Source: a virus (lineage: Duplodnaviria > Heunggongvirae > Uroviricota > Caudoviricetes). From it: a stretch of 22,774 nucleotides of DNA. Numbering within the stretch: position 1 is the first letter of the stretch; each line of letters begins with the position of its first letter. Shown here in pieces: positions 7,461-9,152 of the stretch. The stretch spans positions 1 to 22,774 of IMG/VR virus record IMGVR_UViG_2675903366_000010; one strand, given 5' to 3'. Made by a program: the position numbers and the translations under genes. The notes under the pieces are model-generated. The model searched no databases, was not told where the DNA came from, and saw nothing but the letters and a program-made list of their open reading frames with translations.

Positions 7461-7480
7461 CTGTTCATATCCTCACAGAT

Positions 7481-7506
7481 AAAAAATCGCCCTCATCTTG
7501 GAGGGC
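7481..7506 (-). terminator. Intrinsic terminator-like hairpin just upstream of ea10 (tL2-like)
   Basis: Minus strand GCCCTC-caagat-GAGGGC followed by GATTTTTT. Confidence 0.5.
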
Positions 7507-7648
7507 AAAGAAGATTTCCAATAATCAGAACAAGTCGGCTCCTGTTTAGTTACGAGCGACATTGCTCCGTGTATTCACTCGTTGGAATGAATACACAGCG
7601 CTGTGTTTATTCTGTTGTTTGCGTGAAAATGAAATCCGCCTGAGCGGG

Positions 7649-8530
7649 TTATGACCACTTTTTGTTTGGGTTTCGTTGGTGAGCGTGGTTTACAGGATTA
7701 TTTGATATACCCCATAACTCTGACTCGCTTATCTCTACACGAGAGAAAGACCTGCTTTCTTTCAGTTCTTTTATAAACCTAGAACCTAAGATGACATCTA
7801 TTGTACCAGAAAGTTCTTGTAAAAGATCTTTGTTTTTTCTGAGGAAGAAAATATCTTCTTTATATTTAATTTTTACATAGAATTTATTCTGTATTTTTAA
7901 TATATCAAAGCATGGCAGATATCTATATCCCTCATATTTTCGCCACTGCTTAACAATTATAACATCTTTTTCATTTACTGCATTAATCAGCCCAAGACCA
8001 AGTACAGGTATGAATATTCTATTGTCTGCCGAAAGCGTACAATTATCACCACCAGGCAAATATGTATAAATCATGTCGGAATTTTTATACGCATCAACGA
8101 ATGCACGTAAGAAGCGTACATATTTTTGCCATCCGTTTATACCGAATTTACCATATAAGTATTCTTTATTTGTTAGAAGAAAACTATTTGTATCAGGATC
8201 CTTATCTACAGACCTGTCGATAAGATCTCCAACTACGTTTACAAAGTCAAAGACAGAGTTTAATAAGAACAATTGTCTTTCAGTAGGGCGAATTTCAATT
8301 ATGTAGCCAGGATGAAGACGATATTGCATCTGCTTACGAAGTATACCGAACGCTTGGGTCCGAGCATCTGAAAGCAACTTCTTGTCGCCATCGCCGTGAG
8401 CATTGTTTCTAATAAAACTGATATAATTTGCTAATTTTTCAGCCTCTTTTTTGTGTTTTTTTCGCTCTGATGCTGAGTCTATTGGTTTTGGTATGGACTT
8501 GTAATCAATCTTCTTCATTACGTACCTCAT
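7649..8530 (-). CDS. Hypothetical 293-aa protein, AT-rich, no recognisable family; occupies the ral/sieB accessory locus
   Basis: ATG at 8528-8530 overlaps the N stop (ATGA); second in-frame ATG at 8516-8518 with a GAGG upstream; no long hydrophobic segment. Confidence 0.7.
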   Translation of the reverse strand: MRYVMKKIDYKSIPKPIDSASERKKHKKEAEKLANYISFIRNNAHGDGDKKLLSDARTQAFGILRKQMQYRLHPGYIIEIRPTERQLFLLNSVFDFVNVVGDLIDRSVDKDPDTNSFLLTNKEYLYGKFGINGWQKYVRFLRAFVDAYKNSDMIYTYLPGGDNCTLSADNRIFIPVLGLGLINAVNEKDVIIVKQWRKYEGYRYLPCFDILKIQNKFYVKIKYKEDIFFLRKNKDLLQELSGTIDVILGSRFIKELKESRSFSRVEISESELWGISNNPVNHAHQRNPNKKWS

Positions 8531-8850
8531 GCCAATGGAATGGATTCCCCTTTAACCTTTTGTCTTCCTTGACAAGTTATACCGAACTCACCTGGCTTGC
8601 TATACCAAACTCGATGATTCTTGCGCTCAATACGTTGCAGGTTGCTTTCAATCTGTTCGTGGTATTCAGCCAGCACCGTAAGGTCTATCGGATTCAGTGC
8701 GCTTTCTACTCGTGATTTCGGTTTGCGATTCAGCGAGAGAATAGGGCGGTTAACTGGTTTAGCGCTTACCCCAACCAACAGGGGATTTGCTGCTTTCCAT
8801 TGAGCCTGTTTCTCTGCGCGACGTTCGCGGCGGCGTGTTTGTGCATCCAT
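8527..8850 (-). CDS. N: Antiterminator N (107 aa)
   Basis: Internal ATG at 8848-8850 gives MDAQTRRRERRAEKQAQWKAANPLLVGVSAKPVNRPILSLNRKPKSRVESALNPIDLTVLAEYH...; ARM motif as in lambda N; AGGAG 7 nt upstream; C-terminal third differs from my memory of lambda N at several residues. Confidence 0.92.
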   Translation of the reverse strand: MDAQTRRRERRAEKQAQWKAANPLLVGVSAKPVNRPILSLNRKPKSRVESALNPIDLTVLAEYHEQIESNLQRIERKNHRVWYSKPGEFGITCQGRQKVKGESIPLA

Positions 8851-9007
8851 CTGGATTCTCCTGTCAGTTAGCTTTGGTTGTGTGTGGGAGTCGTAGTCCT
8901 GAACGAAAACACCCCGCAATGGCACATTGGCAGCTAATCCGGATTCGCACTTCCGGCCAATGCTTCGTTTCGTATCACACACACCAAAGCCTTCTGCTTT
9001 GAATGCT

Positions 9008-9038
9008 GCCCTTCTTCAGGGCTTAATTTTTAAGAGCC
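9008..9038 (-). promoter_or_regulatory. nutL (boxA-like GCTCTTAAAAATTAA plus boxB GCCCTGAAGAAGGGC)
   Basis: Exact lambda nutL boxB hairpin on the minus strand with adjacent boxA-like element, upstream of N. Confidence 0.85.
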
Positions 9039-9083
9039 TCACCTTCAATGGTGGTCAGTGCGTCCTGCTGATGGCTTAAAATT

Positions 9084-9152
9084 ACAAGGAAGATTGTATG
9101 TTGTAAACAAGAAATATTGTAAAAAAGGGGCGTGAAAAACAAACTCCATTGT
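9084..9152 (-). promoter_or_regulatory. oL/pL of 434 type: three 14-bp operators ACAAGGAAGATTGT (9084-9097), ACAAGAAATATTGT (9107-9120), ACAAACTCCATTGT (9139-9152)
   Basis: ACAA-N6-TTGT 434 operator architecture read directly from the sequence; sits between nutL and the cI operon. Confidence 0.85.

Follow-up and report, generated by a model that had tools for sequence, protein, structure and literature searches.

Gene 48 of phage 434 and its start codon

The window analysed here covers positions 1 to 22,774 of the viral record IMGVR_UViG_2675903366_000010, 22,774 nucleotides (nt) in all, and the gene under study lies on its minus strand between the antiterminator gene N and ea10. The window is coliphage 434: over the 1.7 kb surrounding the gene, its sequence matches Escherichia phage 434 (OL657226), and likewise the clear mutant 434B, at 100% identity. 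Both flanks agree with phage 434, with 434 cI, cro, hex, a lambda-type N and nutL on one side, and ea10, cIII, kil, gam, bet and exo on the other. The gene is CPT_434_48, its product is gp48 (UMO75312.1), and it carries the GenBank name "Nun C-terminal peptide-containing protein". It goes undiscussed in the 434 genome announcement (PMC9119081), and no paper mentioning Nun-tailed proteins other than Nun was found in the searchable literature.

An uninterrupted open reading frame (ORF) of 293 amino acids (aa) occupies positions 7649-8530 of the minus strand, and an ATGA at 8530-8527 overlaps the N stop codon. The original prediction, which was made from the DNA letters, had taken this ATGA as the start. 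Both the ORF and the ATGA exist. However, the start is most likely the ATG at 8518-8516, giving a protein of 289 aa, because the Shine-Dalgarno sequence, the GenBank annotation, the PHROG profile and the starts of the homologues all agree on it. The Shine-Dalgarno sequence, GAGG at 8528-8525, lies inside the N stop with a spacer of 6 nt to ATG 8518. PHROG 12139 (function unknown) is matched over its full length (profile positions 1-289 of 289, E value 1.6e-205), covering residues 5-293 of the 293-aa ORF, and all gp48 homologues begin at the same Met. With this start the gene begins 8 nt past the N stop, so the predicted overlap disappears while the close coupling to N remains. The GC content of the gene is 34.6% compared to 47% for the window, in line with its earlier description as AT-rich. 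Scans of gp48 against Pfam (E ≤ 1), NCBIfam and PADLOC returned zero matches. The gene and the segments of its product, numbered from the 289-aa start, are as follows.

7649-8518, minus strand: gp48 coding sequence, 289 aa plus TAA stop (ORF, GenBank UMO75312.1, PHROG 12139, homologue starts)
8525-8528, minus strand: GAGG Shine-Dalgarno sequence, overlapping the N stop (TGA 8529-8527) (read from the sequence; annotated ribosome-binding site in OL657226)
8312-8518, minus strand: predicted basic N-terminal helical hairpin, residues 1-69, with helices at 16-38 and 43-65 (AlphaFold model)
7853-8311, minus strand: predicted TnpB/Cas12-type WED+REC module, residues 70-222, with a strand at 71-77, helices at 80-145 and strands at 152-219
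7694-7852, minus strand: predicted C-terminal helices (221-259) ending in ESRSFSRVEIS, then a disordered linker, residues 223-275 (model and alignments)
7652-7693, minus strand: putative Nun-type RNA-polymerase translocation-arrest peptide, residues 276-289, VNHAHQRNPNKKWS (identity to Nun 96-109, phrog_5632, conservation)

The C-terminal tail and the folded body

The last 14 residues of gp48, VNHAHQRNPNKKWS, are identical to residues 96-109 of Nun of phage HK022. The C-terminus of Nun, read from the HK022 genome, is ...MHRVVNHAHQRNPNKKWS and that of gp48 is ...ISNNPVNHAHQRNPNKKWS. In addition, the profile phrog_5632 (Nun-like termination factor) aligns with an E value of 7e-5 to residues 274-293 of the 293-aa ORF, its final 20 aa. 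The original prediction had described the protein as unrecognised and lacking any assignable motif, a description that the tail contradicts and that the GenBank name had already superseded. Nun residues N97, H98, H100, R102, K106, K107 and W108 contact RNA polymerase or nucleic acid, or matter for arrest (PMC5386594), and gp48 has the equivalent of every one of them. V276, N277, H278, A279, H280, R282, K286, K287 and W288 are invariant in seven homologues, and homologues of 37-68% identity retain the pattern V-N-H-A-H-x-R-x-x-x-K-K-W. Mean pairwise identity is 0.82 in the tail compared to 0.38-0.51 in other regions, making the tail the best-conserved part of the family, and its codons differ synonymously at many sites among the homologues.

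The DNA of 434 and HK022 is ~95% identical from window position 7694, the V276 codon, to 7479, and this stretch is broken in HK022 only by the insertion sequence IS903. Since the identity begins exactly at the tail, a recent recombination scar was considered as its origin. This was rejected, as diverged homologues keep the peptide with synonymous codon changes. The highest conservation in the family, combined with synonymous codon differences between homologues, argues that the tail is under selection and is not a scar. The AlphaFold model predicts the tail to be disordered, which fits a peptide expected to become ordered only inside the elongation complex. In Nun, residues 87-109 carry all known arrest determinants, as reported in the Nun cryo-EM study.

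The Nun tail also ends other short proteins in Proteus, Providencia, Photorhabdus and Raoultella. A search of the large protein database with the tail only listed 10 short proteins out of 16 candidates, so that at least this many exist, and this is no full survey. Since it is present on gp48 bodies, on Nun and on other short N-terminal parts, the tail behaves, as judged from these sequences, as a selected and portable effector module. The proteins P0039-P0047, from Raoultella, Providencia, Proteus and Photorhabdus, are 37-48 aa long and contain little beyond ...DD(I/V)M.(R/K)VVNHAHQRNP.KKW; either they are true mini-proteins or the starts of Nun-like genes have perhaps been called wrongly. P0042, of 77 aa, has a different arginine-rich motif ahead of the Nun tail. 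In the 96-aa E. coli protein P0008, a lambda-type Bet N-terminus continues in frame into gp48's last 73 residues, which points to a prophage deletion from within gene 48 to bet that kept the Nun tail.

Close relatives of the whole protein are rare, comprising one 90%-identity cluster of 1042 E. coli sequences and a few diverged proteins. The full-length gene is present in 83 of 5426 complete E. coli genomes (~1.5%), where it nearly always adjoins N; of the isolated phages, 434 and 434B alone carry it. In the lambda-like prophages L007, L014, L051, L052 and L055 the gp48-like gene follows the N gene. In two further loci (L005 and L053) an HK022-type cI is followed by pL, putL and a gp48-like gene in the exact position of nun, with neither nun nor N; the intergenic region of these loci aligns with HK022 pL and putL. 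Conversely, the E. coli prophage L009 has genuine nun (full 112 aa) after an N-like gene. In another E. coli prophage (L008:2325-2546) an N-like 'regulator' gene precedes a nun annotated as 73 aa, which is 5'-truncated and has lost the arginine-rich motif. By these arrangements, one slot is filled either by nun or by the gp48-like gene. A few of the loci have further features. In L052 (3625-6096) an N-like ORF of 108 aa with an arginine-rich motif directly precedes the gp48-like gene, and past an HNH/AP2 gene lies a second N-like ORF of 95 aa whose C-terminus resembles that of lambda N (…GKSIPLI). Interrupted copies of gene 48 also occur in E. coli; one, H50 (NZ_CP062851.1), has an IS1A insertion, and in L054 (4001-5202) the match to the 0.87-kb gene covers 1.2 kb.

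Ahead of the tail, gp48 has a body for which structure prediction was informative once the alignment was deep enough. With three sequences AlphaFold gave a useless model (predicted local distance difference test score, pLDDT, 43). Repeated on a 24-sequence alignment, it gave a pLDDT of 82.7 and a predicted template modelling score of 0.71, although residues 261-281 scored below 50 and the entire tail is of low confidence. Foldseek, which the original prediction had proposed as a check on a predicted structure, returned Cas12f, Cas12k and Cas12n as top matches. These are weak, and searches against the PDB and against viral models gave E values above 0.004. A profile search of PDB sequences with gp48 had zero matches. 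Aligned by hhalign to ISDra2 TnpB alone, with the TnpB sequence checked to be identical to 8bf8_A, residues 70-97 paired with TnpB 5-32 at a non-significant E value of 0.035. Against a profile of ten TnpB N-terminal halves the alignment extended over 140 columns (Prob 74.9%, E value 2.6e-5), placing gp48 71-222 on TnpB 6-176, a register that agrees with the fold match. The predicted body has a feature of TnpB and Cas12, a WED beta-barrel interrupted by a helical REC domain. Its motifs are IEIRPTERQ, FLLxNK, C(S/T)LS, IPxLGLGLI, RYLP.F and KFYVKIKY.

In the model, the protein ends ~67 residues past the WED module, and this remainder consists of helices and the disordered tail. The RuvC nuclease (D-E-D) with its zinc-finger/TNB insert is absent from the model, Pfam OrfB had no match, and gp48 has only two Cys, C160 and C203. 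Since the protein stops so soon after the WED+REC module, has two Cys and has no RuvC or zinc-finger domain, the model shows the predicted body to be a RuvC-less and zinc-finger-less WED+REC module, to which gp48 adds an N-terminal hairpin and C-terminal helices of its own. The hairpin is confined to the phage clade, is weakly conserved (pairwise identity 0.38) and is missing from most distant relatives. An arginine-rich motif at the N-terminus, suggested by AEKLANY in gp48 and AEKQAQW in lambda N, was rejected as a family feature because its basic and aromatic residues are not conserved. The N-terminal helix is Lys-rich in 434, but this is not kept in homologues, as in P0003, where the helix reads SERTKQDIAAKM and is not basic. 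Homologues have Cys at the position of the aromatic residues W18 of N and Y39 of Nun. The ESRSFSRVEIS motif ahead of the tail is conserved even in distant relatives with a different tail.

A profile search of 1.8 billion representatives yielded 24 proteins, of which ~18 are distant relatives of 19-26% identity. They share with gp48 residues ~70-225 and the pre-tail motif, and the two groups align by hhalign over 189 columns (Prob 98.5%, E value 1.7e-15). Instead of the Nun peptide, the distant relatives have the tail GGLPSLGKRR, a peptide for which no link to a known interaction motif was found; the C-termini of P0010-P0035 follow the strongly conserved pattern L.G+.V.GGLPSLGKRR-COOH. One subclade lies between brxC and pglX in bacteriophage exclusion (BREX) operons. 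At such a locus PADLOC matched BrxA, BrxB, BrxC and PglX and gave 0 matches for the embedded relative. Further distant relatives occur in a defence island, in a Dechloromonas element that also encodes TrfA, ParB and a recombinase, and on conjugative Burkholderia plasmids, where the relative heads a run of small genes. A genome-wide scan with the narrow distant-relative alignment recovered only three genomes. Neither the TnpB-type fold nor the BREX-operon relatives had been noticed in the original prediction. The BREX loci L010, L012, L013 and L017 have the order BrxA-BrxB-BrxC-[relative]-PglX. Downstream of PglX in these loci come two unknown proteins (376 aa and 423 aa), one of the HSP70 family (~610 aa) and a second MmeI-type methyltransferase, and upstream in L012 and L017 are a WYL/WCX regulator and an ADP-ribosylglycohydrolase. 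Such a layout is not known from any of the six standard BREX types.

The early left operon and flanking DNA

Three features of the surrounding operon bear on how gene 48 would be expressed.

8527-8850, minus strand: N antiterminator gene, 107 aa, directly upstream of gp48 and expected to be co-transcribed from pL (ORF list, GenBank)
9007-9085, minus strand: pL -10 element (9085-9080), transcript start (9072) and nutL boxB hairpin (9023-9007) (OL657226 annotation mapped onto the window)
7479-7648, minus strand: structured 3' untranslated region that includes a terminator-like hairpin, 7508-7487 (blastn, alignment, fold z-score, terminator scan)

The boxB sequence read in the window is GCCCTGAAGAAGGGC. 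The pL and nutL elements would drive and modify transcription of N and gp48. A scan of the strand found no terminator-like site between N and gp48, the first one on the strand being that at 7508-7487. As there is no terminator after N, gp48 is expected on the immediate-early pL transcript together with N, and this layout shows it as the predicted second cistron of that transcript. The original prediction had likewise placed it under pL with N.

By blastn, homology to lambda extends from 9076 to 8594, is absent in between, and resumes from 7620. The replaced segment is 975 base pairs (bp), compared to 1040 bp in lambda, where it holds sieB, ral and the last ~22 codons of N. The difference of 65 bp is close to the ~66 bp estimated earlier from the letters. 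Also as predicted, no ral-like or sieB-like gene lies between N and ea10, where Pfam, NCBIfam and PHROG gave no match to either. The last ~22 codons of 434 N (8530-8594) lie outside the lambda N homology. They are co-linear with the gp48 start in L007, where a single blastn block crosses the N-gp48 junction; gp48 may thus be inherited together with the part of N that binds RNA polymerase, its C-terminal end.

The 3' untranslated region is ~95% identical to the DNA that follows nun in HK022 and E. coli prophages. The stretch at 7478-7652 (minus strand) after gp48 has an unusually stable fold (-57.6 kcal/mol, z -5.7) and includes a 14-bp hairpin at ~7598-7567. From 7620 on, the region is also kept in lambda upstream of ea10. 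The IS903 of HK022 sits in this region downstream of nun (L003:1-158 and L002:2602-3658, compared to window 7694-7479). Both of its flanks match unbroken 434 sequence with a 9-nt overlap (window 7590-7582), which looks like a target-site duplication. In the E. coli prophage L009 the DNA after nun is unbroken.

Proposed function and comparison with known systems

Taking the tail, the predicted body and the operon position together, we lean, by somewhat better than an even chance, towards gp48 being a two-module Nun-type RNA-polymerase arrest factor with a TnpB-derived targeting body and a role in exclusion or takeover. The tail would enter the elongation complex as the Nun tail does and block translocation. 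The WED-REC body would substitute for the boxB-binding arginine-rich motif of Nun, acting as the tether that chooses which complexes to arrest; near the upstream fork it would bind either a DNA motif or an RNA that is nascent or structured. Such a factor would shut off transcription of competitors (other phages or mobile elements) or of the host, while the phage's own N-modified complexes, or put-modified complexes in HK022-like phages, would escape. Polymerase modified by put is not stopped by Nun, and in lambda the C-terminus of N reaches into the catalytic cavity alongside the upstream DNA; it is thus plausible that a phage's own antitermination device shields its own transcription. The original prediction had named an undescribed anti-defence, exclusion or host-takeover function. 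Exclusion or takeover fits the Nun arrest peptide, the pL expression and the relatives in the nun slot. The ral-like anti-restriction part finds no such footing, as gp48 has no similarity to Ral or SieB or to PADLOC models; PADLOC, too, had been proposed as a check and gave nothing for gp48. A decayed ral/sieB fusion finds no footing either, since gp48 belongs to a conserved family with a well-folded predicted structure.

Several points weigh against this arrest factor. The upstream-DNA contacts of Nun, H93 and R94, have no counterpart in gp48, and two homologues terminate at the Trp without the final Ser. A consensus scan for a promoter for lysogenic expression upstream of gp48 within N found none, although the same scan also missed P_Nun in HK022. 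As the gene is under pL in 434, gp48 may be silent in lysogens, which is where Nun acts. Rfam searches for a partner or guide RNA were empty; IS200/IS605 ends and CRISPR arrays were not otherwise sought. Polymerase binding, arrest, toxicity and exclusion are all presumed for gp48, and the ligand of the WED-REC body, DNA or RNA, is putative. Because 434 uses the lambda-type nut sites and N, an untargeted arrest factor would endanger the phage's own transcription, and the protection by N invoked above is likewise presumed. Finally, the different tail and the BREX and plasmid setting of the distant relatives imply that the ancestral role of the body need not involve RNA polymerase.

The alternative that we take most seriously, although we consider it unlikely, is general host shut-off, in which abundant gp48 made from pL uses the Nun tail to arrest any elongation complex non-specifically, the body is only a scaffold or stabiliser, and the phage's own transcription escapes as N or put RNA occupies or remodels the same entry path. 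Nun 87-109 binds even non-specific elongation complexes with a dissociation constant of ~300 nM, and overproduced Nun kills E. coli by arrest, although nut sites are missing from its chromosome; both observations speak for the favoured arrest factor as well. The position of gp48 as an immediate-early pL gene directly after N suits such a role, as do the resistance of put-modified polymerase to Nun and the entry of N into the cavity. However, untargeted arrest would have no need of a conserved 150-residue nucleic-acid-binding fold, lambda thrives without such a gene, and protection of N-modified complexes from the Nun tail is hypothetical.

An anti-defence or DNA-binding body with a secondary or vestigial tail, in which gp48 mimics or binds a BREX-like or plasmid component as Ral does for EcoKI, seems to us distinctly unlikely. 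The distant homologues in BREX operons, defence islands and conjugative Burkholderia plasmids, together with the presence of ral at this position in lambda, point in this direction. Yet within the phage clade no segment is better conserved than the tail, which varies synonymously, the BREX-type relatives have a different tail, the link to BREX is confined to one subclade, and PADLOC recognised neither gp48 nor the BREX-embedded protein.

It is improbable that gp48 is an autoregulator that opposes N-dependent read-through on its own pL and pR operons and so tunes the lysis-lysogeny decision or early timing. Its tight coupling to N, its co-inheritance with the 3' end of N in L007, and the competition of Nun with N on lambda-type nut sites, which are present in 434, are consistent with this. 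However, there is no conserved arginine-rich boxB-binding motif, the N-terminal helix being variable and not basic in P0003; relatives reside in HK022-like phages without N and nut; and HK022 nun mutants grow and lysogenise normally. Nuclease-dead relatives of TnpB act as RNA-guided repressors, but RNA-guided arrest, in which a TnpB-derived body keeps an omega-RNA-like guide and delivers the tail to complementary targets, is highly improbable despite the WED+REC fold, the profile match to TnpB and the structured 3' untranslated region, because RuvC, which helps to hold the omega RNA in TnpB, is wholly absent, the structured 3' region also lies downstream of nun, which has no WED-REC body, the BREX-type relatives are tightly packed, with gaps of ~20 to 35 nt, and the Rfam searches had no match.

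A bolder extension of the favoured arrest factor, which is quite unlikely as it stands, is that gp48 and its relatives form an undescribed class of WED-REC-reduced TnpB derivatives. They would be sequence-specific targeting modules for short C-terminal effector peptides, relying on a DNA motif, a guide or an RNA structure. In that case the phage clade would amount to a natural, programmable polymerase brake made with the Nun peptide, the GGLPSLGKRR clade would deliver another peptide in BREX operons and plasmids, and Nun would be a recombinant that borrowed its peptide from the gp48 family.

Nun has hitherto been regarded as a one-off, one small protein with one target phage, and here its arrest peptide is found on a wholly different folded body. 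The carriers are a phage with which molecular genetics began, among others, and ~1.5% of complete E. coli genomes. If the proposed arrest function is correct, it widens the known means by which phages stop RNA polymerase, and a RuvC-less branch joins the exaptations of TnpB. The family also offers a handle on an uncharacterised gene inside some BREX operons. Arrest by gp48 is testable with existing Nun reagents, namely Nun-resistant rpoC alleles and known tail mutations. The likeness of the tail to Nun is already in GenBank, whereas the searchable literature seems to contain no description of the TnpB-type body, of gp48-like genes in the nun slot or of the relatives within BREX operons.

Of the known systems, HK022 Nun shares with gp48 its last 14 residues, ~95% DNA identity from the Nun V96 codon through the 3' untranslated region, and a promoter-proximal slot under pL as first or second gene, with gp48 relatives replacing nun in HK022-like phages. 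In contrast to Nun, gp48 has no conserved N-terminal boxB-binding arginine-rich motif, and the Nun profile aligns only to its last 20 aa. Nun is ~109 aa with no folded domain, whereas gp48 has 289 aa and a confidently predicted fold; gp48 lacks H93 and R94, and its host phage itself uses lambda N and nut. Moreover, nun is also expressed constitutively from the repressed prophage, whereas gp48 of 434 is under pL. Lambda Ral and SieB occupy the same N-ea10 interval, with the same mosaic junctions (8594 and 7620), and are likewise accessory early-left genes, but gp48 resembles neither in sequence, profile or size (Ral has 66 aa). The GGLPSLGKRR relatives have the same core and the pre-tail motif S+xYSRV(D/E). 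They differ in their 19-26% identity, in their terminal peptide, in mostly lacking the N-terminal hairpin and in lying outside the lambdoid pL operon, with brxC and pglX as neighbours or on plasmids and integrative elements. Compared to TnpB/Cas12f, TldR, Cas12k and Cas12m, RuvC and the zinc finger (TNB) are absent from gp48 and not just inactivated, and the searches made detected no omega RNA or guide. Unlike TnpB and Cas12 proteins, gp48 has its own predicted N-terminal hairpin and C-terminal helices and, judging from Nun, a putative polymerase-invading peptide.

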